DNA of 64,000 nucleotides. Origin: a bacterium (lineage in GTDB: Bacteria; Patescibacteriota; Minisyncoccia; Phycocordibacterales; Phycocordibacteraceae). Of the stretch, positions 1,687-25,996 are shown one piece after another (the stretch's first letter is position 1; each line of letters opens with the position of its first letter). The position numbers and the translations under genes were made by a program. The stretch is from assembly GCA_021784815.1 (NCBI GenBank), contig JAJYHK010000005.1:25917-89916 (forward strand). The letters are read 5' to 3'. Below the pieces are notes generated by a model. The model did no database searches. It saw nothing but the letters and a program-made list of their open reading frames with translations, and had not been told where the DNA came from.

Positions 1687-2173
1687 ATTGAACACCGCTT
1701 TCTCTATTGGACACCCAGGCCGACATGGTACTGGCTTTCGGGCCTTTCGGTGCTGTAACACTTCAGGAGAGCTAGACACCACCCACAGAACCAAACGTAA
1801 ACGATATTCTTGTCTGCAACGTTTTGCTGACAAAGTCACAAGGCCAGCCTATGCTTCTCATCTTAAACCGGACAAATGGAGCGCGTACGACGGCCTCGTT
1901 TTCGACGGATACAAGCATACCCGCATCAATCACTCAAAGCAGTATTCAGACCGCAGAGGCGGGCACGTGAACGGTATCGAGAACTTCTGGAGCTTCGCGA
2001 AAAGGAGGCTCGCGAAATTCAACGGCGTCTCCCGGGAGACGTTCCTTCTGCACCTCAAGGAGTGCGAATTCAGATACAACCACAAAGGCAACGTGCTTGA
2101 AACCCTCTTAGGGTTTGTGCGGCTTAGCGGATATACGTTGAAAATGCTACATAACAGAAAAGGCCAGCAATAG
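1673..2173 (+). mobile_element. IS1595-family transposase, C-terminal fragment only (remnant)
   Basis: C-terminal ~100 aa (YDGLVFDGYKHTRINHSKQY...HVNGIENFWSFAKRRLAKFNGV...FLLHLKECEFRYNH) matches the ISXO2/IS1595 DDE transposase C-terminus; N-terminal two thirds absent; upstream part of ORF is non-homologous junk containing a partial copy of the local repeat family. Confidence 0.6.
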
Positions 2174-2185
2174 ATTTGCTGGCCT
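2161..2185 (+). terminator. Hairpin (AGGCCAGCAA-TAGA-TTTGCTGGCCT) followed by TTTTCT
   Basis: Perfect 10-bp stem immediately after the stop of the transposase fragment, followed by a T-run. Confidence 0.45.
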
Positions 2186-2197
2186 TTTCTGGTGAAC

Positions 2198-2347
2198 ACC
2201 CGGGCCGGTACGGTACTGGTTTTTAGGCCTGTCGGTACTGGTTCCTGGCGTCACAACCGTGTTTGGGAGGACTGGACTATGACCGGCTTTCGTCACCTTG
2301 TATTTCCTCACTATTTTCTTTCTGAACCTTATTCGATTCCTGCGTCC
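2198..2347. repeat. Local repeat family, copy A (core GGCGTCACAACCGTGTT at 2247-2263; T-arm-like ATTCGATTCC at 2331-2340)
   Basis: Shares about 36 nt (gcctgtcggtactggttcctggcgtcacaaccgtgtt) with the tRNA-Met flank at 11915-11966 and the tattttct and ttcgattcc motifs with copies B and D. Confidence 0.5.
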
Positions 2348-2448
2348 ATCACTTTCTTGTCAGAATCCGCGGGACGACACTAGACTGCGTATGCAAGATG
2401 AAACTTATTTCTCCATGCATAGGTAGTAAGTAGTAATAAGTACCGTCT

Positions 2449-4272
2449 ATGTGTGGAATCGTTGGCTATATTGGTAAGAAGGACGCAACCCCGTTTTTGA
2501 TTGAAGGATTGCGCGCACTTGAGTATCGTGGCTACGATTCTGCTGGTATATATGTCGCCGGACAAGGCGTCCTGAAACGCGTAGGGAAAGTAGATATGCT
2601 TACCAAGGCAATACCGAAGACGTTTTCTGGAAACGCCGGCATCGCGCACACTCGCTGGGCCACCCACGGCTCCCCAACCGAGGCGAACGCCCATCCTCAC
2701 ACCGACACCGCCGAAGAAGTCCTGCTGGTACACAATGGCATCATCGAAAATTACCACGAGCTACGCAATGAACTCGAGTCCGAAGGGATCATTTTTTACT
2801 CTGACACCGACACCGAAGTTCTCGCCAAGATTATTGGCCAAACGTATACCGCCGACACGTTGCTTGAAGATGCCGTGACGCGCGCACTCGCGCGCGTGCG
2901 CGGAACGTATGGCATCGCGGTCATGTCGAGACGCGAACCGGAAAAGATCGTCGCGACCAGGCTCGGAAGCTCGCTTTTAATCGGCATCGGCACCGACGGG
3001 TACTATATTGCCTCCGATGCGACACCTGTCCTCCCTCACGCGCGCGAAGTGATCTATCTCGACGACGGTGAGATGGCGATCCTCACACTCGAGACTTACG
3101 CCGTCCGGAATGCAATCAAAACACTTGTAGAAAAATCTCCAGAGACTCTCGAGTGGGACGCTGAGTCAGTAAAGAAACAGGGCTACGAGCACTTCATGTT
3201 GAAAGAGATCATGGAAATGCCCGAGGTCATAAAAAATACCCTGCGCGGACGACTTGACCCAGACGAAGGTACATCGATTCTCGGTGGACTACGTGACGTC
3301 ATGCCGAGACTCGCACACATACGCCGCCTCATCATCACCGGCTGTGGCAGCGCGTATTACGCCGGCCTCGTCGGCCAGGAGCTCATCGAAGAATTCTCCG
3401 GTATCCCGGTCGAAGTCGAGATTGCTTCGGAACTACGCTACCGCCGTTTTACTGGAGACCCGGAGCATACCGTCTTGCTCGCGGTCTCGCAGTCGGGCGA
3501 AACCGCTGATACGCTTGAAGCGATTCGTATCGCAAAGCGGCACGGCATGCTTACGCTCGGAATAGTAAACGCAGTCGGTTCTTCAATCGCACGTGAGACC
3601 GACGCCGGAGTATACAACCACGCTGGACCGGAAATCGGAGTCGCGTCGACCAAAGGATTCGTCTCGCAAGTCGCTGTCCTCGCGCTCATCGCGCTTATGT
3701 TCGGACGCCAGCGCAGTCTCTCCGAAAAAGAGGGTCGTGAGCTCGTCGAGGCACTTACGATCCTTCCCGAAAAAGCCGCTGAGATCCTTACCCGGACCGA
3801 CTCCATCGCAGAAGCCGCGCGAAGCTTCACCAGCACGCAAAACGCACTTTACATTGGACGTAAATATCAATGCCCAGTCGCCTACGAAGGCGCGCTGAAA
3901 CTCAAAGAGATTTCGTACATACACGCCGAGGGATATAGCGCAGGTGAAATGAAACATGGGCCAATCGCACTCATTGAACCATCCTTCCCCACAATTGCGA
4001 TCGCCCCGAGAGATTCTCTCTACGAAAAGATCTGCTCAAATATTGAGGAGATTCGTGCTCGAAGTGGCAGAGTCATCGCAATAACCACAGACGGCAATAC
4101 CGGCCTGACCCGCCTCGCCGACCACATTTTCTACGTACCAGAAACTCACGAGGCACTCCTCCCGATTCTTACCACCATCCCGTTGCAACTCTTTGCCTAC
4201 CATGTTGCAAGAGAGCGAGGCCTGCCTATCGACAAACCTCGCAATCTCGCAAAATCAGTGACGGTTGAGTAG
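2449..4272 (+). CDS. glmS: Glutamine--fructose-6-phosphate aminotransferase (isomerising)
   Basis: N-terminal MCGIVGY catalytic Cys2 (Ntn amidotransferase) and two SIS domains; typical 607 aa length. Confidence 0.95.
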   Translation: MCGIVGYIGKKDATPFLIEGLRALEYRGYDSAGIYVAGQGVLKRVGKVDMLTKAIPKTFSGNAGIAHTRWATHGSPTEANAHPHTDTAEEVLLVHNGIIENYHELRNELESEGIIFYSDTDTEVLAKIIGQTYTADTLLEDAVTRALARVRGTYGIAVMSRREPEKIVATRLGSSLLIGIGTDGYYIASDATPVLPHAREVIYLDDGEMAILTLETYAVRNAIKTLVEKSPETLEWDAESVKKQGYEHFMLKEIMEMPEVIKNTLRGRLDPDEGTSILGGLRDVMPRLAHIRRLIITGCGSAYYAGLVGQELIEEFSGIPVEVEIASELRYRRFTGDPEHTVLLAVSQSGETADTLEAIRIAKRHGMLTLGIVNAVGSSIARETDAGVYNHAGPEIGVASTKGFVSQVAVLALIALMFGRQRSLSEKEGRELVEALTILPEKAAEILTRTDSIAEAARSFTSTQNALYIGRKYQCPVAYEGALKLKEISYIHAEGYSAGEMKHGPIALIEPSFPTIAIAPRDSLYEKICSNIEEIRARSGRVIAITTDGNTGLTRLADHIFYVPETHEALLPILTTIPLQLFAYHVARERGLPIDKPRNLAKSVTVE

Positions 4273-4311
4273 TGCCTATAACTATAACTCCGCGGCAATG
4301 GTAATGGAGAC

Positions 4312-4349
4312 GCGAGCAAAGCCGCAACATGTGTCGCGGCTTTGCTCGC
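4312..4349. terminator. Strong stem-loop (GCGAGCAAAGCCGC...GCGGCTTTGCTCGC) between glmS and the convergent TraB-like gene
   Basis: 14-bp perfect stem 40 nt after glmS stop; no clear U-tract on either strand, so may act as a bidirectional terminator. Confidence 0.4.
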
Positions 4350-4367
4350 GTGATTCCTATCGGTACC

Positions 4368-4496
4368 GTACTTATTTTTGACGAGCGCCAGTACTTGATA
4401 CAGCGTCACAACCGTGTTGAATTTATTGGACACGAATCAGATTCTGTAGCATTGTATTTTCTTGGTATTTTAGCGAGATTCAGTTCGATTCCTGCA
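4368..4496. repeat. Local repeat family, copy D (core GCGTCACAACCGTGTT at 4403-4418; GTTCGATTCC at 4483-4492)
   Basis: Same core 16-mer, internal tattttct and T-arm-like decamer at the same spacing as copies A and B. Confidence 0.45.
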
Positions 4497-4506
4497 GACG
4501 TATCCA

Positions 4507-5346
4507 CTACTCAGGCAAATTCGCTTGCTCGACCAAAAACCGGAGCGGCAGCTCTTGCTTCACAGCGTGCGCCGAACCGTACACCGCGAACAAACGGTCA
4601 TATTTCTTTAATCCTTCTGCGATCCGCTCAAAAATGTGTTCGTTGCGAAAGGCACTTGAGCTTCGAGAAATTTTGTTAGTAACGCTCTGCGGTTTACCCT
4701 CCCACGGAATCGGATCCACCTTATCGCTATAGAACTGCTCGTCATCGAGCTGGAGACTCTCGATCACTTCCTTACCAAAAGCTGCGAGTTCTGCAGCATC
4801 CCATCCCGCACGTTGAACTAGCCGTTCTGATTCTTGCTCTACGATCCGCTCGCACGCTTTGGGGTCCCGATTCTCGTTATTTCGCTGGTACTGAAGTATG
4901 TCTCGAAACACGTAATAGTCGAAAATATCCCTCTTCGAGAAACCGCTCTCCATAAGGTGCTGGACCTCCATGGCAAATCGCGGTTCAGGCGACTCGAAAT
5001 CAGCTCCTGCGTCTACGGCAAGCTTCAGGGTATAGAAATTCTCGCCCTCCGTTCGCGCGTCCTCGATACTCATATTCTTGAGGCGTTCTCGCCAGCCTTC
5101 TTTGTCCTCGTTAGCCGATTCAATTCCTTCGACGTACACCATCTGCGGATTCGCTTTTTTGAGAGCGGCGGCGATGTCGTCGAGAACTGGGTCGGAGGGA
5201 TTGCCCGTGTGATACGTCCCGAAGTACGCCAGTTCCTTGGGGCCATTCTTTACCTCGAACTCGTAAACTCGCTTTCCCTCCTGACGCGCAAACGGGTGAT
5301 CCTGGTACTGCTCACTCGACAGGATCGCTCCTTTCAGCTCATCCAT
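4507..5346 (-). CDS. TraB/GumN (Tiki-like) family protein
   Basis: GxxH ... E ... GxxH arrangement (FGTYHTG ... VYVEGIES ... YGSAHAV) characteristic of the TraB/PrgY/GumN fold; function unknown. Confidence 0.45.
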   Translation of the reverse strand: MDELKGAILSSEQYQDHPFARQEGKRVYEFEVKNGPKELAYFGTYHTGNPSDPVLDDIAAALKKANPQMVYVEGIESANEDKEGWRERLKNMSIEDARTEGENFYTLKLAVDAGADFESPEPRFAMEVQHLMESGFSKRDIFDYYVFRDILQYQRNNENRDPKACERIVEQESERLVQRAGWDAAELAAFGKEVIESLQLDDEQFYSDKVDPIPWEGKPQSVTNKISRSSSAFRNEHIFERIAEGLKKYDRLFAVYGSAHAVKQELPLRFLVEQANLPE

Positions 5347-5388
5347 GCTGTACCGACGGTCTGGCGAGAAGCCACCGTCTTTATATTG

Positions 5389-5560
5389 CCGCGTATGGAA
5401 ATACGCGGGTTTCTGGATTTTAGGGGCGTCGGAACAGTACCAATTTTGGTGCAGTTCCTGGCGTCACAACCGTGTTGCGGGGGCGGGAATTGACTTCACC
5501 CATCTCCGTCGCGTACTCCCTCAGTATTTTCTGTGGGCATCTGGTTCGATTCCCGCGCCC
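5389..5560. repeat. Local repeat family, copy B: hairpin (5389-5408) + ~70-nt flank repeat + degenerate copy of tRNA-Met 3' end (5461-5495) + inverted T-arm-like GGTTCGATTCCCGCGCC (5543-5560)
   Basis: About 85-90% identical to 11864-11975 (flank and last ~20 nt of the tRNA-Met gene) with one 12-13 nt indel; the tRNA part diverges (GTCAATT instead of the TTCGATT loop), so it is not a functional tRNA. Confidence 0.55.
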
Positions 5561-5853
5561 TCTCCTCAAAATCTAATTAACTAGAAACGTGACGCCCATT
5601 TCTTTTCTATTGGCCTTGCGGTATCAGCAAGTGGCTGGTATATTCATATAAAGGCATGGACGCTGCTGACACAGCCGAGCCGAGGAAAGAAATCCCTGAC
5701 TTGGGAAAGTAGAATCCTCCGGAGAAAGCCCGTAATAGCTTTAATGAGGTCAAGTGCGAGCTTGACGAAGTAAGGTGGCACCGCGACGACATTCGCCCTT
5801 ACAAATCCATCCGAAGTCTTAATTGGTGGATTTGTAAGGGATATTTTATTTAT

Positions 5854-7173
5854 ATGGAAAAAAGATTGCATATTAACGAAATACGGAATCATGTCGGCAA
5901 GGCGGTGACAATCGCAGGTTTTGTTCATATAGTCCGCGACCAAGGGAGCATAAAGTTCCTCATGATTCGAGATATCACCGGGATTATCCAGGTGGTGGTT
6001 ACCAAGCACAAGCCGGAAGCGCTTGAGATAGCAAAGACACTTACCCACGAATCGGTTGTGGAGATTATCGGACTCGCTAAAGAAGAGAAACAAGCTCCTG
6101 GCGGTTTTGAGATTGAAGCAGATCAAATTACAATCCTCTCCCTCGCTGATCCGGAGCTTCCGATACCTATTGTCGAGAAGGGTCAGCAGGAAGAAACTGA
6201 TCAGTCGACCCGGTTGGATTGGAGGTGGCTTGATCTTCGCAAGCCCGAGAAGGCACTTATTTTCAAAGTCTGGACGACGATGGAACAGGCATTCCGCTCG
6301 TACTGCATCAACAGCGGATTTATCGAGATCCATTCCCCTAAGCTAACCGCTACCGCGACCGAGTCCGGCGCTGAACTGTTCGCCGTGAAGTATTTTGACC
6401 AGGAGGCGCGCTTGGCGCAGAGTCCTCAACTGTATAAGCAGATGGCGATGGCAGCTGGCTTCGAGAAGGTCTTTGAGGTGGGTCCAGTATTCCGAGCAAA
6501 CCCGTCTTTCACCTCGAGGCACGATACCGAATTCACCATGTACGACGTTGAGGTGTCTTTCATCAAATCCCATCACGATTTGATGGATGAGGAGGAACGC
6601 ATGGTAGTCGCTATGCTTCAAGCAGTGAAGGAGAAGCACGGAGAGGAGATTGAGAAGCTCTACGGCCGTACCGTAGAAATCCCTAAACTTCCCTTCCCGC
6701 GACTGACGGTAAAAGAGGTTAAGGAAATAACCAGCCGCATGGGCATTCCCGACGAGCGCGATGGCGACATGAGTCCCGAAGAGGAGCGCGCGGTTTCCGA
6801 GCACATTCTGAAAGAAACCGGATCAGAGTTCCTGTTCATTCACGAATTCCCGACTAAGGTGCGCGCGTTCTATAGCATGCGCAAAGAGGACGACCTGGAG
6901 GTGACCAATAGCTTCGACCTTCTCTGGAACGGTCTCGAGATTACGAGTGGCGCTCAGCGCGAGCATCGGTACGAACAACTCAAGAAGCAAATCGAGGAGC
7001 AAGGTCTGGATGTTTCCGGATTCGAATCCTATCTTAATTTCTTCCGTTACGGCTGCCCTCCTCACGGAGGATTTGCTCCGGGACCGACGCGCATGCTCAT
7101 GAAGCTCCTGAATGTTGCGAACGTGCGCGAGGTGACGTATCTCTACCGCGGCGTGAAGCGTCTTACTCCGTAA
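5854..7173 (+). CDS. aspS: Aspartyl-tRNA synthetase, archaeal/eukaryal type (class IIb), paralog 1
   Basis: N-terminal OB fold; class II motifs (FRANPSFTSRHDTEFT, GGFAPGPTRMLM); C-terminus REVTYLYRGVKRLTP like archaeal-type AspRS (...RDRRRLTP); about 439 aa. Confidence 0.75.
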   Translation: MEKRLHINEIRNHVGKAVTIAGFVHIVRDQGSIKFLMIRDITGIIQVVVTKHKPEALEIAKTLTHESVVEIIGLAKEEKQAPGGFEIEADQITILSLADPELPIPIVEKGQQEETDQSTRLDWRWLDLRKPEKALIFKVWTTMEQAFRSYCINSGFIEIHSPKLTATATESGAELFAVKYFDQEARLAQSPQLYKQMAMAAGFEKVFEVGPVFRANPSFTSRHDTEFTMYDVEVSFIKSHHDLMDEEERMVVAMLQAVKEKHGEEIEKLYGRTVEIPKLPFPRLTVKEVKEITSRMGIPDERDGDMSPEEERAVSEHILKETGSEFLFIHEFPTKVRAFYSMRKEDDLEVTNSFDLLWNGLEITSGAQREHRYEQLKKQIEEQGLDVSGFESYLNFFRYGCPPHGGFAPGPTRMLMKLLNVANVREVTYLYRGVKRLTP

Positions 7174-7244
7174 GGTTTGCGTCATTCCTATTCCTATTGT
7201 CTAATAGGCGCTAAAGGGCTATAACTTCAGCAGGTCCCTTACCC

Positions 7245-8285
7245 TTGGAGGCGAGAATGAATACTGTGCCAGTGGCTGACCATTTGCGTCATGCCCTTAA
7301 CCTCAAGCCCCAGGAAGTTGCTCTTCGAAAAGAACTCGATGAATGGCTCCCCGAGGTAATCATCGACTGTCATGCTCATTGCAACCTGGAGGCACATGTA
7401 AAGAATGTGAGCGACTACGCTTACAAGCACATGATGTCGTCTTTCACCTACCTGAGCCTGGAGGACTCGGCGAGGTTGAAGGATCTGTTCTATCCGTTCA
7501 GGAAGGTCAGGTCGCTCCGATTTCCGAAGACATTCCGGGGAATTGATCATCGTGCGGCAAACGAATATTTGCTGAACGAAAGCCCGGAAGACGATCGCAT
7601 CGCCGTGTTCGGCCTGCCGGAAGATTTCGACTACACCGTCGGCATCATGCGGCATCCCCGAGCTTCGGCACTTAAGATGTATTGGTCGTATGTCGATCCT
7701 CCGGCCAAGAAGATATACGATTTCTTCACGCCGGAGATTCTGGAGGAGGCGCAAGCCCTCGACCTGCCAATCATTCTGCATCTTCCGCGAATGATCGTTC
7801 ATACCTGCGACGATCTCATGGCTGTGCTTTCGGACTTTCCTCACCTGAGGGTAGTGCTGGCGCACCTGGGGCTGTCGAAACTCTTGGTCCCGGGTTTGGA
7901 AGAGGCGTACCGGCGAGCCGCGCGTTCTCCGAACGTGTGGCTCGATACGGCGCTGAATCCCTCTCCAGAGGTCGTCTCGCTGGCGCTCGAATGCTTCGGA
8001 CGCGATCGCATCATGTTCGGCTCGGATGAGCCGTTGAACCTGCTGCGATCAGTCGCGTATAAACATCCCGAGAAAGGCGAACGGATCGTCACCGACTATC
8101 AGTACCACTGGGTTGATCCGGTTGAATATGCCGAGTACGGCCACCTTGCGAAGGATGCCGTGCACGCTCAGTGGCAGTGTACGTTGGCTATAAAGAAAGC
8201 GGTCGAGGGCTATCCGCTCGAGGAACAAGAAGGGCTGAAAGCGCTCATCTTCCAGAAGACGGCTGAGCATGTCTTCAGGTTCTGA
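7245..8285 (+). CDS. Amidohydrolase-2 family (TIM-barrel metal-dependent hydrolase)
   Basis: IIDCHAHCN metal-binding HxH start, later HLPR and AHLG...GSDEP motifs typical of PF04909-like amidohydrolases/decarboxylases. Confidence 0.55.
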   Translation: MEARMNTVPVADHLRHALNLKPQEVALRKELDEWLPEVIIDCHAHCNLEAHVKNVSDYAYKHMMSSFTYLSLEDSARLKDLFYPFRKVRSLRFPKTFRGIDHRAANEYLLNESPEDDRIAVFGLPEDFDYTVGIMRHPRASALKMYWSYVDPPAKKIYDFFTPEILEEAQALDLPIILHLPRMIVHTCDDLMAVLSDFPHLRVVLAHLGLSKLLVPGLEEAYRRAARSPNVWLDTALNPSPEVVSLALECFGRDRIMFGSDEPLNLLRSVAYKHPEKGERIVTDYQYHWVDPVEYAEYGHLAKDAVHAQWQCTLAIKKAVEGYPLEEQEGLKALIFQKTAEHVFRF

Positions 8286-8322
8286 ATTGCACGGCGAGCT
8301 GAAACCAGCTCGCCGTGATTTT

Positions 8323-8805
8323 TTATTCTTCCTTTATAAGTTTCGCAAGTGCTGCAAGTTCTTCATCGCTCTCTCGCTTGTAGTCGTGGGAAGAAATATA
8401 CCCCTCGTAAACATCAAAGTATTTTTCGACATCGACTTTCCTTTCTTTCCACTCATCGGCCTTAGTACCATGCATCGGGAACATTTTTGCGTGGAGATGG
8501 TTCACTCCGAACCCTTCAAAAATCACTCCGGTACGCCCCACGTCCTCCAGCTTCGCGTCTAGTAATTTTGCGACCTTACCGGCTGCTAGTACCAGATCGG
8601 TCACGACTTGGTCAGGCAAATCAAAGAGGTAGCTGGGGTGATGGTCTTTCGGAATAACTACGGAAAAACCTTTAGTGTTAGGAAAGATGGAAAGAAACGC
8701 CACATGCTTGTCGTCCTCCCATATTCTGTGTGCAGGTTCTTCGCCCGCCGCAATTTTGCAAAATACGCAATCGTCTTTCCATACCATATCGATTGATTTT
8801 ATCAC
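8323..8805 (-). CDS. HIT-family (histidine triad-like) hydrolase with non-canonical motif
   Basis: N-terminal CVFCKIAAGEEPAH...VIPKDHH matches HIT fold; catalytic region reads NHLHAK (H-x-H-x-K rather than H-x-H-x-H). Confidence 0.65.
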   Translation of the reverse strand: MIKSIDMVWKDDCVFCKIAAGEEPAHRIWEDDKHVAFLSIFPNTKGFSVVIPKDHHPSYLFDLPDQVVTDLVLAAGKVAKLLDAKLEDVGRTGVIFEGFGVNHLHAKMFPMHGTKADEWKERKVDVEKYFDVYEGYISSHDYKRESDEELAALAKLIKEE

Positions 8806-8866
8806 GAGGCTTTTTATATAAAAGAATGGCCCGGAGCATTGCTGCTCCGGGCCACGCCGTATCCCC

Positions 8867-10168
8867 TTACGGGGTCAGGCGATTCGGACCTCGATAGAGG
8901 TACGTGACTTCACGAACCGTACTGCGGTTCAGCAGAATCATGAGCAGCCGGGTGAGACCGACGCCCATACCACCGTGAGGCGGACATCCGTAACGGAAGA
9001 AGCCGAGGTAGTCCTGGATCGTCTCCAAGTCCACACCCTTCTCCTCTGCCTGCTGCTTCAGCCGCTCGTAGCGATGCTCGCGTTGCGCCCCGGTCGTCAC
9101 TTCGAGCCCCTTCCAGAGAAGGTCGAAGCTCTTGGTGATTTCCGGGTTGTCCTCCTGCCGCATGTGGTAGAAGGCACGCACGCTGACCGGGTAGTCCGTG
9201 ACGAACACGAACTCATGCCCGTGCTGCCCGAAGATGTGTCGAGCAAGCATCCGTTCGCCTTCGGGGTCCAGATCCTCCTTGTGGGAGATGATATGGCCCT
9301 GCTGGGCGAGAATCTCGCGCGCTTCCTCGAGGGAAATACGCGGGAACGGAAGTGTCGGCACCGCCACCTTCACGCCGAACGTCTCCTCTATTTCAGAGCC
9401 GTATTCGGTCGAGATGCGAGACAGGACATAGGCCAGCCACGCCTCCTCGATTTTCATGACGTCCTCGTGCGATTCGATCCACGAGACCTCCATATCCACG
9501 GACGTGAATTCCGTGTCGTGGCGGCTCGTGAACGAGGGGTTGGCCCGGAACACCGGACCAATCTCGAAGATCCGATCGAATCCTGCCGCCATCGCCATCT
9601 GCTTGTAGAATTGTGGCGATTGAGCGAGACAGGCCTCCGTATCGAAGTACGGGAGCTTGAACAGCTCCGACCCCGATTCGGTCGCGGCCGGTGTCAGCTT
9701 TGGAGAGTGAATCTCCAGGAAGCCGCGCTCGGCCCAGAATTCCCGCATCGCTTGCTCCATCAAGGTTTGCACCTTGAAAATGAGCAGGTTTTCTGGTCGC
9801 CTGAGCGAGATGTAACGCCAGTCCAGCTGCTTGTCGAGCGCAGAATCGGCCGCGATTGGCAGAGGGGACTCCGCCACGGACGCGATTTGGATATCGGTTG
9901 CCCGAATCTCCAAGCCGCCCAGTTTCACTTTAGGGTCGAGAATGACCTGCCCGGTGACCTGGAGGGCAGAGCCCGACGTGATGCCGGTGAGGAGGCTTGT
10001 GATGGAAGCCGCCCCGTCCGTCTTGTCGTGTGCCACCTGGACGAGTCCAGTGTGGTCCCGGATCGTGAGAAACAGCATGCGCTTTTGATCGCGCACCGTT
10101 TCCACGAATCCCTTTACCGTCACCTCGCCGGTAGCGAGGCTAAGGGCCTTGATGAATGTGCGTTGCAT
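8867..10168 (-). CDS. aspS: Aspartyl-tRNA synthetase, archaeal/eukaryal type (class IIb), paralog 2
   Basis: About 65% identical to the 5854-7173 product over the catalytic core (FLEIHSPKLTPAATESGSELF, FRANPSFTSRHDTEFT, REVTYLYRGPNRLTP); start placed at the internal Met (MQRTFIKA) preceded by GGAGA; ORF track starts 12 codons earlier. Confidence 0.75.
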   Translation of the reverse strand: MQRTFIKALSLATGEVTVKGFVETVRDQKRMLFLTIRDHTGLVQVAHDKTDGAASITSLLTGITSGSALQVTGQVILDPKVKLGGLEIRATDIQIASVAESPLPIAADSALDKQLDWRYISLRRPENLLIFKVQTLMEQAMREFWAERGFLEIHSPKLTPAATESGSELFKLPYFDTEACLAQSPQFYKQMAMAAGFDRIFEIGPVFRANPSFTSRHDTEFTSVDMEVSWIESHEDVMKIEEAWLAYVLSRISTEYGSEIEETFGVKVAVPTLPFPRISLEEAREILAQQGHIISHKEDLDPEGERMLARHIFGQHGHEFVFVTDYPVSVRAFYHMRQEDNPEITKSFDLLWKGLEVTTGAQREHRYERLKQQAEEKGVDLETIQDYLGFFRYGCPPHGGMGVGLTRLLMILLNRSTVREVTYLYRGPNRLTP

Positions 10169-10213
10169 AGTCTTTCTCCGCTTTGACAATTGACGATAGG
10201 ACACATCTGCCGC

Positions 10214-11533
10214 TTAGGGGTAGACCCGGCGACGGAAGATGCGCGGGAACGGGATTGCGTCCCGTACATGTGGAATGTTGAGCATCCAGCGGATCATCCG
10301 CTCGACACCCATTCCGAACGCAGCATGCGGCACACACCCGAGCTGATGGACCTCGCGGACCCATTCATACCGGGGATCGTTACGCTTGTCTTTCTCAGTG
10401 AGACGCTCATCGAGCATCTCGATGTCGTAGATCTTCTCGGCGACGCCGAGAAGCTCGCCCATCCCGTTGCTCGCGATCAGGTCGGCGACGCGCGTGATGC
10501 GCGTGTCGGACGGATCGATGCAATATGGGAAAGGCTCTACGACTCGCGGAATCCCGATGACCCAGAACGGGGTCGAGGGGAAAAGCTCGGAGAGCCTTCT
10601 TTCTTCCGCGCCACCGAGCCCCTTGCCGAACTCGATGTCGAAGCCGTCTTTCTTCAGAAGTTTGACGGCATCTTCATACGAGATACGAGGGAATGGCGTT
10701 CTCATACCATCCAGGCACATTGACGTGTCGAGGACTTGCGCCACGTCGGGGCTTTTCTGCCAGCACGTCTTCGTAACGTGGGAGATGAGCCCCTCGACGA
10801 TCCGAATGATGTCTTCGAGATCAGCGAAAGCGATTTCCGCTTTGATGTGGTGGTACTCCATGAGGTGCCGAGGACTCCGCGACTCCTCGCCGCGGAAACT
10901 CGGTCCCATGTTGTACACGCGCTCGAACGCGTGAACCGCTGCTTCGAGATAGTACCCGACGCATTGGGTCATGAAGATGTGTTCGCCGTTGATTTCGACG
11001 CCCACAGCTGACCCGTCATCGTAGAGCGGGATCGGCGTGAGAATCGGGGCATCGATTTCGAGGAAATGGTTATCCTCGAACCAGCGCCGGACTTCCGACA
11101 TCATGAGGCTCCGGAACTTCAAGATCTCCATGATCTTTGGGTTCCGAAGATACAAATGCCGGTTGGACAGCAGCTGATCGGTCAGCTTGGTATCGAACAC
11201 GTCCACATCGCCCCGCGGCTGCGGGGAGACGGGAATGCTCGCTCTGCTGATGATGCGGATTTCATCGACCGCGATTTCGCGCGGCCGATTGACATGAGAC
11301 ACCACCTTGCCAGAGACTTCGATAGCGGATTCGAGCGGGATATGCCCGATCGCATCGAATTTGTTTTCTCCGACGCGATTTCGCTCGATAACGACCTGGA
11401 TGACGCCGGTCGAGTCCATCACGTCGAGAAAGCAAATGCCGCCGCTGTGCCTTCTTGACCGAAGCCAACAAGGCAGGACGATGTCGACCCCGGCTCGCCG
11501 TTCGAGCAGGTCGGAAACGTACACACTTTTCAT
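10214..11533 (-). CDS. asnS: Asparaginyl-tRNA synthetase-like class IIb aaRS (divergent)
   Basis: OB-fold N-terminus; motif 2 SFRGEESRSPRHLMEYHHIKAE; motif 3/C-terminus GFGMGVERMIRWMLNIPHVRDAIPFPR typical of AsnRS; start placed at Met of MKSVYVSD preceded by GGAGA (track ORF extends 38 codons further). Confidence 0.65.
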   Translation of the reverse strand: MKSVYVSDLLERRAGVDIVLPCWLRSRRHSGGICFLDVMDSTGVIQVVIERNRVGENKFDAIGHIPLESAIEVSGKVVSHVNRPREIAVDEIRIISRASIPVSPQPRGDVDVFDTKLTDQLLSNRHLYLRNPKIMEILKFRSLMMSEVRRWFEDNHFLEIDAPILTPIPLYDDGSAVGVEINGEHIFMTQCVGYYLEAAVHAFERVYNMGPSFRGEESRSPRHLMEYHHIKAEIAFADLEDIIRIVEGLISHVTKTCWQKSPDVAQVLDTSMCLDGMRTPFPRISYEDAVKLLKKDGFDIEFGKGLGGAEERRLSELFPSTPFWVIGIPRVVEPFPYCIDPSDTRITRVADLIASNGMGELLGVAEKIYDIEMLDERLTEKDKRNDPRYEWVREVHQLGCVPHAAFGMGVERMIRWMLNIPHVRDAIPFPRIFRRRVYP

Positions 11534-11859
11534 CACTAATCTCCTTCCACGAGACAGTAGGACGTTGGTTGACAGTGGAGAGGCTTTCGCAGTCGTTCGT
11601 GAGTTGTCAAAGAACTCGTACGAAATACCAAATTTATAATATAACAAATCACCTTATTTGTACAGTGCATGTTCAGTGCTGGGTATTCTTACGCCCATAC
11701 GAGGGCAGGAATACAGAACCGGCGTATTTGCTTGGCTGTACAGTTCGATTCCTACGCCCGTGCTCAAAATCGGGGGAATTCGAGTGTGACTGCGACACAA
11801 AACCGCACCGAGTACGAGAATAGGAATCGAACTAGCTATTTATTGTATTTGCTACATAG

Positions 11860-11966
11860 CCCAAAAACCCGCGCATGGAAATACGCGGGTTTTTGGGCTT
11901 TTAGGGGCGCCGGAACAGTACCAATTTTGATGCCTGTCGGTACTGGTTCCTGGCGTCACAACCGTG
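11860..11966. repeat. Local repeat family, copy C (3' trailer of tRNA-Met): hairpin CCCAAAAACCCGCG/CGCGGGTTTTTGGG (11860-11897) + flank repeat + core GCGTCACAACCGTGTT (11954-11969)
   Basis: Direct-repeat partner of 5389-5485; the hairpin is flanked by T-runs on plus and A-runs read as U on minus, so it can act as a bidirectional intrinsic terminator. Confidence 0.55.
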
Positions 11967-12037
11967 TTGCGGGGGTGGGAATCGAACCCACGCCTGGAGG
12001 TTATGGGCCTCCCGAGCTACCTCTGCTCTACCCCGCT
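11967..12037 (-). tRNA. tRNA-Met (anticodon CAU), probably initiator-type; CCA not encoded
   Basis: Cloverleaf: acceptor AGCGGGG/CCCCGCA with A1.A72 mismatch, D-stem GAGC/GCTC (A11:U24), anticodon stem GGAGG/CCTCC, loop CCCAUAA, T-arm GTGGG-TTCGATT-CCCAC, discriminator A; followed by CAC not CCA. Confidence 0.85.
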
Positions 12038-12109: not shown

Positions 12110-12715
12110 TTACGCGATATCGAACTCTCGAAAGACACGCTCGTACTGCGCAATGGTGCGGCGGGTAAGCGTTTCTGAGAGATCGAAGGCGGAACCTTCG
12201 TGAGCGATCTGATTGCGCACTTTGTGCGCTTCCCATGCGTCTGAGACCGTATCAAAATCGGCCGGGTCGACCTCGCGCAGCTTCTCGCCCACGCTGTCAC
12301 CCGGATATCCTTGGCGGGTAAGCATGTCGTTCAACATGATGTCGGCCTCGATGATCGCCTCGCGCCACTCGCTCGGACTCATGCCGCTCGCGAGTTCCTG
12401 AATACGCCTCCAGCGCGGGTTCTCGGGGCCGGCTGCCCCAGACGTGACAATCATAGATCCGTAAAAGGCGCGCTCACGCTCGCGCAAGGCAAACAGCCGT
12501 ACGGTCGCGTAAATGATGGCGAACATCGCTGCGGCCGCAATGATGTATCCGAGAAATACGATAATCATCCAGATCTGGACGACGACAGATTGGAGGTGCG
12601 CGGCATTTGTCGCCAGGCTCCCACGACCCTGAAACAGGAAGTCATAGATGACGCGAAAAAAATACTCGATGTTTAATTGTTCAGGAACACCCATCGCTCT
12701 TAGTATACCGAGCAC
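12110..12715 (-). CDS. Hypothetical membrane-anchored protein
   Basis: One or two predicted TM helices followed by a soluble domain; no recognisable family. Confidence 0.35.
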   Translation of the reverse strand: MLGILRAMGVPEQLNIEYFFRVIYDFLFQGRGSLATNAAHLQSVVVQIWMIIVFLGYIIAAAAMFAIIYATVRLFALRERERAFYGSMIVTSGAAGPENPRWRRIQELASGMSPSEWREAIIEADIMLNDMLTRQGYPGDSVGEKLREVDPADFDTVSDAWEAHKVRNQIAHEGSAFDLSETLTRRTIAQYERVFREFDIA

Positions 12716-12801
12716 TAGCCGGCTTTTCTTACATAAAATCGAACACCTGTGTATGTAACCGTTTCGAGAGACCGGTTCGTACTGAATTTAGGAGAGAGCA
12801 G

Positions 12802-14235
12802 CTACGCACGATGCAGTTTCTCCACCGCTGCGCCGACCGCAAAGAGCGCGTCTTCTGCGGTATGCGGCGCGAGGAACTGCATGCCGGCCGGCAACTGCGC
12901 CCCCTCGTATGAGACGGTCTTCATAGGCACCGATATTGCCGGAATGCCCGCGAGGTTTGCGGTCACCGTAAAAAGATCTTCGAGATACATCGAAAGCGGG
13001 TCTCCCTTCTCGCCTATCGCAAACGCGGGAGCCGGCATAGTCGGGGTCGCAATCACATCCACCGATTCGAATGCCCGGGCGAAATCCTGTGCGAGAAGCG
13101 AGCGTGCCGCAACGGCCTTGCGGTAGTATGCGTCGATATAGCCCGAAGAGAGCACAAAGGTACCGAGCAAGATACGCCGCTGCGTCTCCGGCCCGAACCC
13201 TTCGGAGCGCGAGAGGAGGTAGTCGTCGAGAAGCGTGTCGCCGCGCTTGGCAAGCCCGTAGCGGATACCGTCGAAGCGCGCGAGATTCGTCGAAACTTCG
13301 GCAAAGTTGATGATGTAATAGGCCGCGAGCGCGGGCGCTGCCGATGGCAACGCGATGTCGACGAGTTCGTAGCCTGCACGCTTGAGCGCGGTGAGTTCCG
13401 TCTCAAATGCCTCTTTTACCTCGGCCGCGATGCCCTCGCCCCTGAGGGCATCATGCAGCACGCCGATGCGCCTGGGAGCGATTGTCTTCTCGCGGCGCGG
13501 TGCGGCAAGCGTTGTCGAATCGAGCGGATCCGGTCCGGTAATCGCGTCGAGTACAGTGCGCGCGTCCGCAACCGTTTTCGCGAGCACGCCGACCTGGTCG
13601 AAGGACGAGGCGGCGGCAATGATGCCGGAGCGCGAGACGCCGCCGTAGGTCGGCTTCACACCGACGACGCCGCAGTAGCTCGCCGGATTGCGTACCGAAC
13701 CGCCGGTGTCGGTACCGAGTGCGGCAATGCACAGGTGCGCGGCGACGGCGGCCGCCGAGCCGCCCGAGGTACCGCCCGCGACGCGCGTCGGATCGTGTGG
13801 GTTCCTCGTCACGCCGAAGGCCGAGTGCTCGGTCGAGCCGCCGAGTGCGAATTCGTCCATGTTAGTGCGTCCGAGAAAGAGCGCGTTATGCGCGCGCAGC
13901 TTCTTCACCACGGTCGCGTCATAAGTCGCGCGATAGCACTCAAGCATCTTGCTTGCGGCGCTCGCGACTTTGTCCTCGACGAGAATATTGTCTTTGAGCG
14001 CGAGCGGAATGCCGCAAAGGAGCGGCGCCTTCTCGCCTTCCTCGTCGATACGCTTCTGTGCTGCTTCAATAGCAGCGTCGTCCGCATCAAAAATCTCCAG
14101 ATACGCGTTGAGCGAAGGGTTTTTTTCTTCCGCCGCCGTCGCGCATGCCCCCCACAATGTGCGGACGGTGAGCGCGCCCGCGCGCAGCGCGCGCGCCGCC
14201 TCCTCGAGCGTCAGTTCATTTGCCGGCTTAGTCAT
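12802..14235 (-). CDS. gatA: Asp-tRNA(Asn)/Glu-tRNA(Gln) amidotransferase subunit A
   Basis: Amidase signature family (GGSSGGSAAAVAA, catalytic Ser-cisSer-Lys region), 477 aa, immediately downstream of gatC. Confidence 0.9.
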   Translation of the reverse strand: MTKPANELTLEEAARALRAGALTVRTLWGACATAAEEKNPSLNAYLEIFDADDAAIEAAQKRIDEEGEKAPLLCGIPLALKDNILVEDKVASAASKMLECYRATYDATVVKKLRAHNALFLGRTNMDEFALGGSTEHSAFGVTRNPHDPTRVAGGTSGGSAAAVAAHLCIAALGTDTGGSVRNPASYCGVVGVKPTYGGVSRSGIIAAASSFDQVGVLAKTVADARTVLDAITGPDPLDSTTLAAPRREKTIAPRRIGVLHDALRGEGIAAEVKEAFETELTALKRAGYELVDIALPSAAPALAAYYIINFAEVSTNLARFDGIRYGLAKRGDTLLDDYLLSRSEGFGPETQRRILLGTFVLSSGYIDAYYRKAVAARSLLAQDFARAFESVDVIATPTMPAPAFAIGEKGDPLSMYLEDLFTVTANLAGIPAISVPMKTVSYEGAQLPAGMQFLAPHTAEDALFAVGAAVEKLHRA

Positions 14236-14550: not shown

Positions 14551-17216
<2,666 letters not shown>

Positions 17217-25408: not shown

Positions 25409-25996
25409 TCAGCGTAGCCAGTAGAGGCGCACGTGCATCTGGTAAGCGTACACGCCCGTGTTCGAGCCGCTCACCGAGAGGCTCTCGACGTCAAGGAGGC
25501 GCTGATTTAGTTCGAGCCCTGCAAGAAATTTCTGGAGTGCTGCGTACGTCCCCGAAGCCTCAAGAGTGAGGTCGACCGACTCCACGGCATTCGCGACGCC
25601 GGAGCCGAGGGCACCCGCCGCGGGTCCTGAAGAAGCTCCCGCATTCCCTGCGATATTTGAACCCCCTGCACCTTGTGCCACGTTCGCACTCGTAAGTGAG
25701 AGCCCTGAGCGCGCGGCGATCGCATTGAGATCGAGGATGGTTTGCACGTTATTCACCGAGTTGGGAAGGAGGTTCCCGATCGCCTGGAGGTCAGCCGGCG
25801 ATATCGCGTTGCGTTCGGACGCGAGCTGGCTTTGCTCCGCCACGTACTGCTTCGCTGATGCAAGCACCGAGCCATCGCCCGCAATAGCGGCTTTCGTTGC
25901 GGCAATACTTCCGTTCCAGGTCGGGCTTATGTAACCGAAAAACAGAGCCGCCGAGAGCAGGAGCGCGACCGTGGGCATCAAGTGGTGCTGGGTCAT
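25409..25996 (-). CDS. pilO: PilO-like pilus assembly protein
   Basis: Single N-terminal TM + coiled-coil + periplasmic domain; synteny pilM-pilN-pilO. Confidence 0.5.
   Translation of the reverse strand: MTQHHLMPTVALLLSAALFFGYISPTWNGSIAATKAAIAGDGSVLASAKQYVAEQSQLASERNAISPADLQAIGNLLPNSVNNVQTILDLNAIAARSGLSLTSANVAQGAGGSNIAGNAGASSGPAAGALGSGVANAVESVDLTLEASGTYAALQKFLAGLELNQRLLDVESLSVSGSNTGVYAYQMHVRLYWLR

Follow-up and report, generated by a model that had tools for sequence, protein, structure and literature searches.

Repeats beside an initiator tRNA-Met gene of Patescibacteria: probable junctions of serially inserted units in a genomic island

The question that this locus raises is why a family of short repeats should be crowded beside a single tRNA gene. 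The DNA concerned is a stretch of 64 kb (positions 25,917 to 89,916 of contig JAJYHK010000005.1, assembly GCA_021784815.1), hereafter called the window, from a member of the Patescibacteria. These bacteria have tiny genomes, and their mobile elements and gene-exchange routes are poorly described. An earlier note on this sequence had offered three explanations: serial attachment-site (att) scars at tRNA-Met, a family of tRNA-derived elements similar to short interspersed elements (SINE) or miniature inverted-repeat transposable elements (MITE), or a conserved small RNA. The answer that we consider probable is that the first 12 kb of the window are a genomic island at the 3' end of the initiator tRNA-Met gene, in which the repeats are att-type junctions of serial insertions. 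Under the same reading, the copies in the window bound three cargo units, which carry glmS, the open reading frame (ORF) ORF279, and a cluster of AspRS and AsnRS genes. A genomic island located 3' of a tRNA gene is an already known kind of structure.

The repeat family in the window

The exact 16-mer GCGTCACAACCGTGTT is present at four sites of the window, all on the + strand: 2248 (copy A), 4403 (copy B), 5461 (copy C) and 11953 (copy D). The shuffle expectation is 0.02, and none of 100 shuffles reached four. This count and the first three positions agree with the earlier note, which had placed the last site at 11954. The T-arm-like decamer GTTCGATTCC has five exact matches (4483, 5544 and 11743 on the + strand; 11823 and 11978 on the - strand) where 0.17 are expected. 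The match at 11978 is the true T-arm of the initiator tRNA (tRNA-fMet), so that the enrichment described before stands, but its five non-tRNA copies are four exact ones plus a one-mismatch version, ATTCGATTCC, at 2331 after copy A. The T-arm-like motif that had been noticed about 68 nt downstream of the 16-mer is found 65-68 nt past the sites at 2248, 4403 and 5461, and is missing after the tRNA-adjacent copy. Two other motifs recur, TATTTTCT at 2312, 4455 and 5525, and GGTACTGGTT at 2212, 2234 and 11939.

The four copies can be aligned over about 200 nt, far past the 16-mer (alignment A1), and have a common layout. A terminator-type hairpin is followed by a GGTAC-rich module of about 60 nt and by the 16-mer, the conserved module comprising about 75 nt in all. 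After copies A, B and C comes an arm of about 85 nt that holds TATTTTCT and ends in (G/A)TTCGATTCCYGC. A module profile built from 62 distinct related modules and run with nhmmer on the 64-kb window matched in four places only (2185-2263, 4346-4419, 5411-5478 and 11897-11970). The earlier note had stated that its observation would be refuted by copies that could not be aligned beyond the 16-mer and by a motif common throughout the genome. Neither is the case: the alignment extends well past the 16-mer, and the profile finds no more than these four places in the window, each of them next to the tRNA, which sets the motif apart from generic repeats similar to REP (repetitive extragenic palindromic) elements.

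The gene for initiator tRNA-Met (CAT anticodon; 11967-12037, - strand) is recognised by ARAGORN and by the Rfam tRNA model (58.1 bits). In sense orientation it ends in ...CCCCCGCAAC, followed by ACGGTTGTGACGC. Its last bases GCAAC plus the next A are the reverse complement of TGTTGC, the 6-bp core at which the breakpoints described below are located. Module D (11897-11970, + strand; nhmmer E=2.6e-19; 16-mer at 11953-11968, core at 11965-11970) is the live junction with the tRNA. There, the 16-mer consists of the tRNA's last three bases and 13 nt of its trailer. The proposal of serial att scars at tRNA-Met, which gains support from the comparison with relatives, needs to be refined in two respects. 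One concerns the recombinase (see below); the other is that the 16-mer lies mostly in an element-borne arm just outside the tRNA and not in a duplicated tRNA segment.

A bidirectional terminator hairpin (11858-11899; inverted repeat I12, with 19-nt arms 95% complementary) separates module D from a conserved non-coding block, called F (11686-11856, + strand; 77% mean column identity in the 20-sequence alignment A2). The F block is carried beside modules of types i and ii and also holds a degenerate att-like pseudo-site. Its inverted repeat (11742-11765 and 11810-11833) bears two of the GTTCGATTCC decamers, at 11743 and 11823, as hairpin arms.

Module A (2185-2263, + strand; 16-mer at 2248-2263) matches the profile with E=1e-18, and 33 of 40 nt of its left flank are identical to copy D. 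It is preceded by a bidirectional terminator-like hairpin (2155-2191) with a 16-nt perfect inverted repeat (I20), and a terminator hairpin is found at this place in all related copies. Module B (4346-4419, + strand; E=3.5e-9; 16-mer at 4403-4418) and module C (5411-5478, + strand; E=2.7e-11; 16-mer at 5461-5476) follow hairpins at 4310-4351 and 5389-5408, respectively. Positions 5407-5452 are 87% identical to 11888-11933 (D5). In copy B the 16-mer is conserved at 16 of 16 positions, although the ungapped flanks are identical to those of copy D at just 13 of 40 and 16 of 40 positions.

The arms that follow these three modules on the + strand are called X. The best preserved is X_C (5477-5562), composed of a remnant of the tRNA-fMet 3' end (GCGGGGGCGGGAATTGA), a spacer and an inverted copy, GGTTCGATTCCCGCGCCC, which is the T-arm-like motif. 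It is 95% identical to the tRNA junction over 40 nt (D1) and keeps 17 nt of the tRNA 3' end; homologous arms are present in the related loci L073, L029 and L089. X_A (2264-2347), with TATTTTCT and ATTCGATTCCTGCG, is decayed and 75% identical to 5513-5560 (D6), and window positions 2129-2351 are 77.7% identical to a module plus C-like arm of L089. On these alignments X_A and X_C are members of the C-like class of arms described below. X_B (4419-4500), with TATTTTCT and GTTCGATTCCTGCAG, is a decayed partner arm recognised by motif matches and alignment.

The family in related genomes

Related loci were sought with the 18-mer GGCGTCACAACCGTGTTG in contigs of one genome per species, which gave at least 80 loci and copy numbers per genome that are lower bounds. 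About 60 of the 80 listed loci are from Patescibacteria, and about 17 chance matches are estimated. The carriers include Kaiserbacteria, Paceibacterota, Parcubacteria, Nomurabacteria and bins labelled Saccharibacteria. The module profile found at least 97 copies on 54 contigs across the related loci. All 24 contigs with two or more modules carry them in the same orientation (43 adjacent pairs), mostly at spacings of 0.8-3.4 kb.

The modules lie on the variable side of an anchor formed by gatA, orf201 and tRNA-fMet. In the window this chromosomal anchor (12110-14235, - strand) consists of orf201 (12110-12715) and gatA (12802-14235), followed by gatC and ligA, in an order conserved in relatives. 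Homologues of orf201, 50-60% identical to that of the window, stand beside the tRNA in about 40 loci, and the order gatA-gatC-ligA is also found in L086, L088, L089 and L090. The product of orf201, which sits immediately upstream of tRNA-fMet, is predicted to be membrane-anchored and has no Pfam or NCBIfam match. On the island side the 142 ORFs represent 123 Pfam families. An intact tRNA with an island on its 3' side, a conserved anchor and a variable gene content are thus all found, which is the standard picture of an island 3' of a tRNA gene, and the alignments show the copies to be co-oriented and restricted to this side of the tRNA.

Left of the 16-mer, the sequence is conserved and forms three module subtypes. 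To the right of it, discrete classes are found. One is the reverse complement of tRNA-fMet, with or without a group I intron (RF00028); the non-tRNA arms are classes 4, 5, 6 and C-like, most of which have at their start a degenerate version of the 3' end of the tRNA.

Where the two sides meet, the breakpoints are sharp. For instance, L083 and L085, from different assemblies, share an identical large serine recombinase (LSR), the same ORF373, the terminator, the module and the 16-mer through ...GTGTTGC. Past GTTGC, L083 enters tRNA-fMet and L085 enters a class-5 arm. A second comparison involves an occupied/unoccupied pair, L090 and L010, homologous through TGTTGC across the module, the class-6 arm and the terminator. 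After TGTTGC, L010 goes straight into the tRNA. L090 passes through a class-4 arm, a 12.4-kb LSR element (with ParB-methyltransferase, copper/metal resistance and LSR genes), a terminator, a type iii module and TGTTGC before it reaches the tRNA. TGTTGC is the sole sequence common to all four site types in this comparison; it occurs in the attB-like site of L010, in both junctions of L090 and in the junctions between module and class-4 arm, but most junctions additionally share the entire module arm. At L077:6309 a module with its 16-mer runs into the middle of an F block, the point of contact being a degenerate look-alike of the tRNA end (a pseudo-site). These comparisons of aligned loci show that the module and the 16-mer are element-borne and that the breakpoints recur at TGTTGC. 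The dyad symmetry around the core is limited to an outer GGTTC...GAACC pair at about ±21 nt, a weak, post hoc observation which is not relied on.

Units have moved between genomes. Positions 13006-16275 of L089 are 97.9% identical to JAKAKH07 over 3277 nt; over 4322 nt the adjoining orf201-gatA-gatC-ligA genes are 68.5% identical. This block begins with F, terminator and module, joined to a C-like arm and genes for MFS, PAP2 and pyrophosphatase, and continues with a second F, terminator and module joined to the first 35 nt of the tRNA 3' end. In the window, the F block and module D are 86.8% identical to the JAKAKH07 copy, versus 68.8% for the neighbouring core genes. The units are therefore more alike between genomes than the core genes are. 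In L086, L088 and L089, the space from the LSR element to the tRNA holds module-bounded units of one to three genes that lack a recombinase (for instance NYN/NUDIX, Fic-HTH and MFS-PAP2-PPase). Related cargo genes are met in more than one island. Two modules of L086 (14053-14159 and 15579-15685) are 97% identical over 107 nt. Recent horizontal transfer of module-bounded units is shown by these identities.

The commonest families among the 142 island-side ORFs are Recombinase (6), Zn_ribbon_recom (6) and Resolvase (3), which are the domains of LSRs; Fic, PG_binding and toxin-antitoxin-type genes come next. The LSRs are 84-95% identical to each other, to be compared with the 50-60% identity of the orf201 homologues of the same genomes to that of the window. 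The LSR gene is always upstream of the module and on the same strand, and in L038, L044, L083, L085, L090 and L091 the order is LSR, no or one ORF, terminator, module and tRNA. LSR fragments are found near the modules of L008, L054 and L035, and four of five LSR homologues on long contigs are located 2-8 kb from orf201/gatA. The LSR elements have about 12-13 kb and carry restriction-modification systems or metal-resistance genes. A strong and positional association of this LSR family with the module is shown by the gene maps, and the recombinase associated with the att junctions appears to be of this LSR type, unlike the tyrosine integrases of classical islands. In the Candidate Phyla Radiation (CPR), this LSR family is very large. 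No terminal overlaps that would mark circles were found in the LSR contigs of about 11 kb.

One locus uses another tRNA. In L091 (10001-11523), an LSR of 75% identity is followed by a terminator and a module-like arm that abuts tRNA-Arg(CCT). The trailers of L091 and of the fMet site are homologous (...ACGGTTGTGACGCCAGGAACCAGTACCG versus ...AGCGCTGTGGCGCAGGGAACCGATACCGG) but differ next to the tRNA, and the near-palindromic core of L091 is CACAGCGCTGTG. By its sequence, L091 is a natural example of retargeting within the LSR family.

Several side observations concern these loci. The group I intron lies in the anticodon loop of the initiator tRNA-Met of many related genomes (L047:1027-1280, L017:1853-2083, L077:6544-6746, L090:~13030-13270 and L089:~16276-16577), apparently at two positions, before CAU (3' exon CATAACC) or after it (3' exon AACC); the tRNA of the window has no intron. 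The class 4 arm (L015:206-370, L067:1613-1780 and 2921-3085, L077:3423-3590 and 4685-4850, L090:503-650) is a conserved non-coding element of about 165 nt, without a match in Rfam, that has the near-palindrome CGGTACTGTACC at both ends; this motif is also present inside the module. Class 5 arms finish in a T-run. The class 6 arm (L010, L013, L004 and L090:318-455) extends over about 130-175 nt from GCGGGGGCCGGA to ...CCCCGCAAC, has acceptor-like ends on both strands. It is located between the module and a tRNA-fMet gene that is intact, with a short trailer and a terminator of its own, and has the appearance of a miniature insertion with a tRNA-end duplication of about 20 nt on its flanks. A ParB_N-N6_N4 methyltransferase fusion gene is located at the X-arm end of LSR elements (L086:1520-2851, L090:1479-2846 and L082:3026-4357), and L082 has two tandem serine recombinase genes and no module. 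LOOT RNA (RF03000) is found above the gathering score at L070:1311-1429 and L067:6392-6510, both on the - strand and 0.8-3.5 kb from modules.

A model of serial insertion and its rivals

The model that we propose can be read along the + strand of a junction: terminator hairpin, module of about 60 nt, 16-mer overlapping the core TGTTGC, and partner arm. Copy D has the tRNA itself as its partner. Copies A, B and C would each have the arm (X) from the far end of the unit next to them, an arm that mimics the tRNA 3' end and bears an inverted copy, the T-arm-like GTTCGATTCC. In the relatives, the module is the recombinase-proximal end of LSR elements of about 12-13 kb, and small recombinase-less units of one to three genes with the same ends accumulate between such an element and the tRNA. 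The LSR would catalyse the exchange, acting in trans on recombinase-less units, and the near-invariant segment of about 33 nt, CGGTACTGGTTCCTGGCGTCACAACCGTGTTGC, would be its element-side half-site, a role that would explain why the 16-mer of copy B is conserved at all of its 16 positions. Integration would leave the tRNA intact, swapping only the trailer and the terminator, so that the terminator of the element would now end the tRNA transcript. Since there is no LSR in these 64 kb, copies A-C may be relics or dormant sites. The inverted tRNA-like pieces may serve as second half-sites, as pseudo-attB sites or as insulating terminators, or may be what is left of older junctions.

Several facts weigh against this model. 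Canonical serine integrases recombine attP only with attB, leave 2 bp of identity and do not reuse attL or attR. However, every junction here has the whole arm of about 75 nt in common, and the internal junctions are hybrids of two P-arms, so that either a non-canonical choice of sites, as in arrays of staphylococcal cassette chromosome (SCC) elements or in TnpX/TndX, or homologous recombination is needed. The intact 16-mer of copy B amid near-random ungapped flanks is not what a pure decay of scars predicts. No LSR gene or fragment was detected in the window by tblastn (E<=1e-3), and the catalysis assumed there is consequently deduced from the relatives. The cargo of the window (glmS, AspRS) is housekeeping-like and differs from typical accessory genes, the copy numbers per genome are known only as lower bounds, and neither an excised circle nor a strain-level presence/absence polymorphism has been directly observed. 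Finally, the 18-mer was not found in IMG/VR; a phage origin was rejected on this ground.

One rival is homologous recombination. The repeats would be homology arms by which units are exchanged or duplicated, for instance after DNA uptake, and the LSR would be mere cargo. The block of 97.9% identity shared by L089 and JAKAKH07 extends over the F/module copies on either flank and reaches 35 nt into the tRNA, the two L086 modules are 97% identical over 107 nt, and canonical serine integrases neither need nor make long direct repeats. Because long shared arms permit homologous recombination, we retain it as the main rival, albeit an improbable one, as it accounts poorly for the sharp breakpoints that recur at TGTTGC in independent comparisons, for the insertion at the F pseudo-site of L077:6309, which has little flanking homology, for the consistent position and orientation of the LSR relative to the module, and for the same architecture with a diverged core at tRNA-Arg.

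Somewhat less probable still is that the module works as an RNA. It would be a conserved 3' trailer of the initiator tRNA or an element for its processing, or else an independent small RNA, with the other copies following tRNA-like small RNA genes (the X arms) that use the same signal for 3' processing. In the orientation of the tRNA, the module directly follows it and stops at an intrinsic terminator, its conservation is far above that of the neighbouring proteins, and tRNA-fMet-like 3' ends are kept in the X arms. The module also folds into a hairpin, with z-scores of -3.5 on the minus and -1.9 on the plus strand. Nevertheless, RNAalifold found no compensatory pairs in 39 modules (covariation term -0.16), and the mismatches of the stem, read from the aligned arms, are of the type U·G on the + strand, which would become A·C in RNA of the tRNA sense. 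Beside another tRNA, tRNA-Arg, the LSR is followed by a module-like arm, and some intact tRNA-fMet genes (L010, L013 and L004) are followed by ACGATT and a terminator only; the module is thus not an obligatory trailer of this tRNA. With regard to the X arms, Rfam (gathering and E-value modes; window and 18 loci) gave no match on the repeats, its matches elsewhere being tRNAs, a sub-threshold T-box, group I introns and LOOT RNA. ARAGORN found only two tRNAs in the window and no match on the X arms. These arms were also rejected as tRNA, tmRNA or split-tRNA genes, since ARAGORN and the tRNA covariance model were negative and hand-drawn cloverleaf pairings failed. The hairpin of X_C (-33.8 kcal/mol, z -2.6) pairs the tRNA-end remnant by the core (5' arm) with the T-arm-like decamer (3' arm), but has decayed in copies A (z +1.4) and B (z -0.2). 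This combination of no Rfam or ARAGORN match, no covariation of the module and a decayed T-arm hairpin in A and B leaves the small RNA proposed earlier unsupported, and the absence of an Rfam match and of RNA covariation leads us to read the window copies as att-type junctions. The hairpin of the F block has a z-score of -4.9; over a 300-nt block the covariation term is weak (-0.97), although one hairpin, H1, appears by eye to vary in a compensatory manner.

We give the least credit to a tRNA-derived element of MITE or SINE type, or to decaying segmental duplicates (pseudogenes) of the tRNA-fMet locus. The inverted repeats of tRNA 3'-end-like sequence in the X arms and the F block (I5, I21 and I22), the 17 nt of tRNA 3' end kept in copy C and the IS1595 fragment that adjoins copy A would suit such an origin. 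However, the copies are not dispersed, as the SINE/MITE option of the earlier note would have it, but strictly co-oriented on one side of one tRNA. Decay would not preserve the non-tRNA part better than the tRNA part, the units hold different genes and not duplicates, and no target-site duplications or terminal inverted repeats were noted in the flanks read, among which no systematic search was made.

Serial insertion at att-type junctions thus remains our preferred reading. We advance a bolder version of it with reserve, as a possibility that we think rather doubtful when its parts are taken jointly: the initiator-tRNA locus would be a platform for the capture of cassettes, operated by a serine recombinase and comparable in function to an integron, and the resident LSR element of about 12 kb would supply the enzyme. 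Recombinase-less units with one to three genes, each between a module of about 75 nt and a tRNA-mimicking arm, would be captured, stacked and exchanged among distantly related genomes at the last six bases of the tRNA. Their cargo would include housekeeping-type genes such as glmS and T-box-controlled AspRS paralogues, and the strictly conserved 16-mer would be the working half-site that keeps old junctions competent for recombination.

Cargo of the island and comparison with known systems

From left to right, the island of the window begins with a truncated module, copy E (type i; 1697-1755, + strand), whose alignment with 2183-2240 spans 58 nt and has about 77% identity (score 49, compared with at most 24 in shuffles). 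It lacks the final 30 nt or so (GTTCCTG and the 16-mer), being cut at the start of an IS1595 fragment. The partial copy that the earlier note had seen near 1700-1760 is therefore real, and it stands ahead of the transposase fragment and not inside it. This dead fragment of an IS1595-family transposase (1793-2173, + strand) holds the C-terminal part of the DDE domain only (positions 59-153 of 153 in PF12762 and 108-215 of 215 in NCBIfam transpos_IS1595) and is a secondary insertion into the island, outside the repeat family. The ORF that spans it (1673-2173, + strand) begins inside module E, so that its first 40 or so codons are read-through of the repeat and not transposase. IS1595 was also considered as the driver of the family, the fragment adjoining copy A, but was discarded, as tblastn found no homologue near the modules in 80 related loci.

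Cargo unit 1, between modules A and B, is glmS (2449-4272, + strand; NCBIfam TIGR01135, 767 bits). Cargo unit 2, ORF279 (4507-5346, - strand), has no assigned function; it has a sub-threshold TraB/GumN match only, no NCBIfam match, and no relatives were found in metagenome contigs of the Joint Genome Institute (JGI). The arrangement of glmS and ORF279 recurs on a second assembly (L001).

Cargo unit 3 (5648-11647) opens with a T-box leader (5648-5803, + strand; 47.8 bits versus an Rfam gathering score of 93, E=3.6e-8), which carries the T-box sequence GGUGGCACCGCG and a terminator, immediately precedes the AspRS gene at 5854 and apparently lacks most of stem I/II (74 model positions are reduced to 4 nt). 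There follow a nondiscriminating AspRS (5854-7173, + strand), an amidohydrolase (7245-8285, + strand), an HIT-family (HinT-like) protein (8323-8805, - strand), a second nondiscriminating AspRS (8867-10204, - strand) and an AsnRS-like gene (10214 to about 11535, - strand). Both AspRS genes are above the NCBIfam cut-off for aspartate-tRNA(Asn) ligase, and the AsnRS-like gene scores below cut-off. The two AspRS paralogues, in opposite orientation, form an inverted repeat of 185 nt with 73% complementarity. It may be speculated that this unit is a resistance or immunity cluster against inhibitors of the aminoacyl-adenylate type.

If the reading proposed here is true, a single tRNA locus is a major and easily recognised hotspot at which defence, resistance and even housekeeping-type genes pass between genomes whose neighbouring core genes are only about 68% identical at the DNA level. 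The module with its 16-mer would then be a simple tag for such islands in fragmented metagenome bins. The recombinase family and the short tRNA end that it targets could be developed into a genetic tool for these organisms, which are now without any. Annotators should be aware that copies of glmS or of aminoacyl-tRNA synthetase genes at this place may be horizontally acquired cargo.

No description of such a system was found in the literature on serine recombinases or tRNA islands of CPR bacteria, but the system has parallels elsewhere. The SCC islands are inserted by the LSRs CcrAB or CcrC at the 3' end of rlmH (orfX), which stays intact. Their integration-site sequence is directly repeated at the junctions, and they form tandem arrays with pseudo-SCC elements that lack a recombinase and carry resistance or defence cargo. 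The islands described here share with them the LSR (in the relatives) at the 3' end of an intact housekeeping gene, the direct junction repeats, the recombinase-less units and the resistance or defence cargo. They differ in that the target is a tRNA gene (initiator tRNA-Met, or tRNA-Arg in one relative) and not a protein-coding gene, in the much longer junction repeat (a module of about 75 nt, often with an F block of about 170 nt), in the Patescibacteria host and in the much smaller units of 1-3 kb, and they are known here from sequence alone.

Classical tRNA islands and tycheposons are inserted by integrases at tRNA 3' ends and include satellite units that lack an integrase. The islands of Patescibacteria resemble these arrays in their location on the 3' side of an intact tRNA, in the direct repeats that bound the units, in the variable cargo and in the tRNA 3'-end remnants at distal junctions. 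In general, the evolution of attP sites is such that they complete the gene into which they insert (PMC12884075). Two differences stand out: the associated enzyme is an LSR and not a tyrosine integrase, and the greater part of the strongly conserved repeat is outside the tRNA. To our knowledge, a serine recombinase with a tRNA end as target is a rare pairing.

As in integrons, co-oriented sites with imperfect inverted repeats separate recombinase-less units of one or two genes, which are exchanged between genomes. However, the cassette genes are here in both orientations and have their own terminators, and the tRNA end, distant from the gene for the recombinase, appears to be where new units come in. 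Integron attC sites have an R''/R' consensus (RYYYAAC / GTTRRRY) that the 16-mer, judged by eye, does not match, and no Phage_integrase, the family of IntI-type enzymes, is among the top 25 Pfam families of the 142 island ORFs; attC was rejected on these grounds. The system is not an integron, nor is it a MITE or a REP element. What is new in it is the pairing of an LSR with a tRNA end, the length of the conserved arms, the stacking of very small units and the group of bacteria that hosts them.

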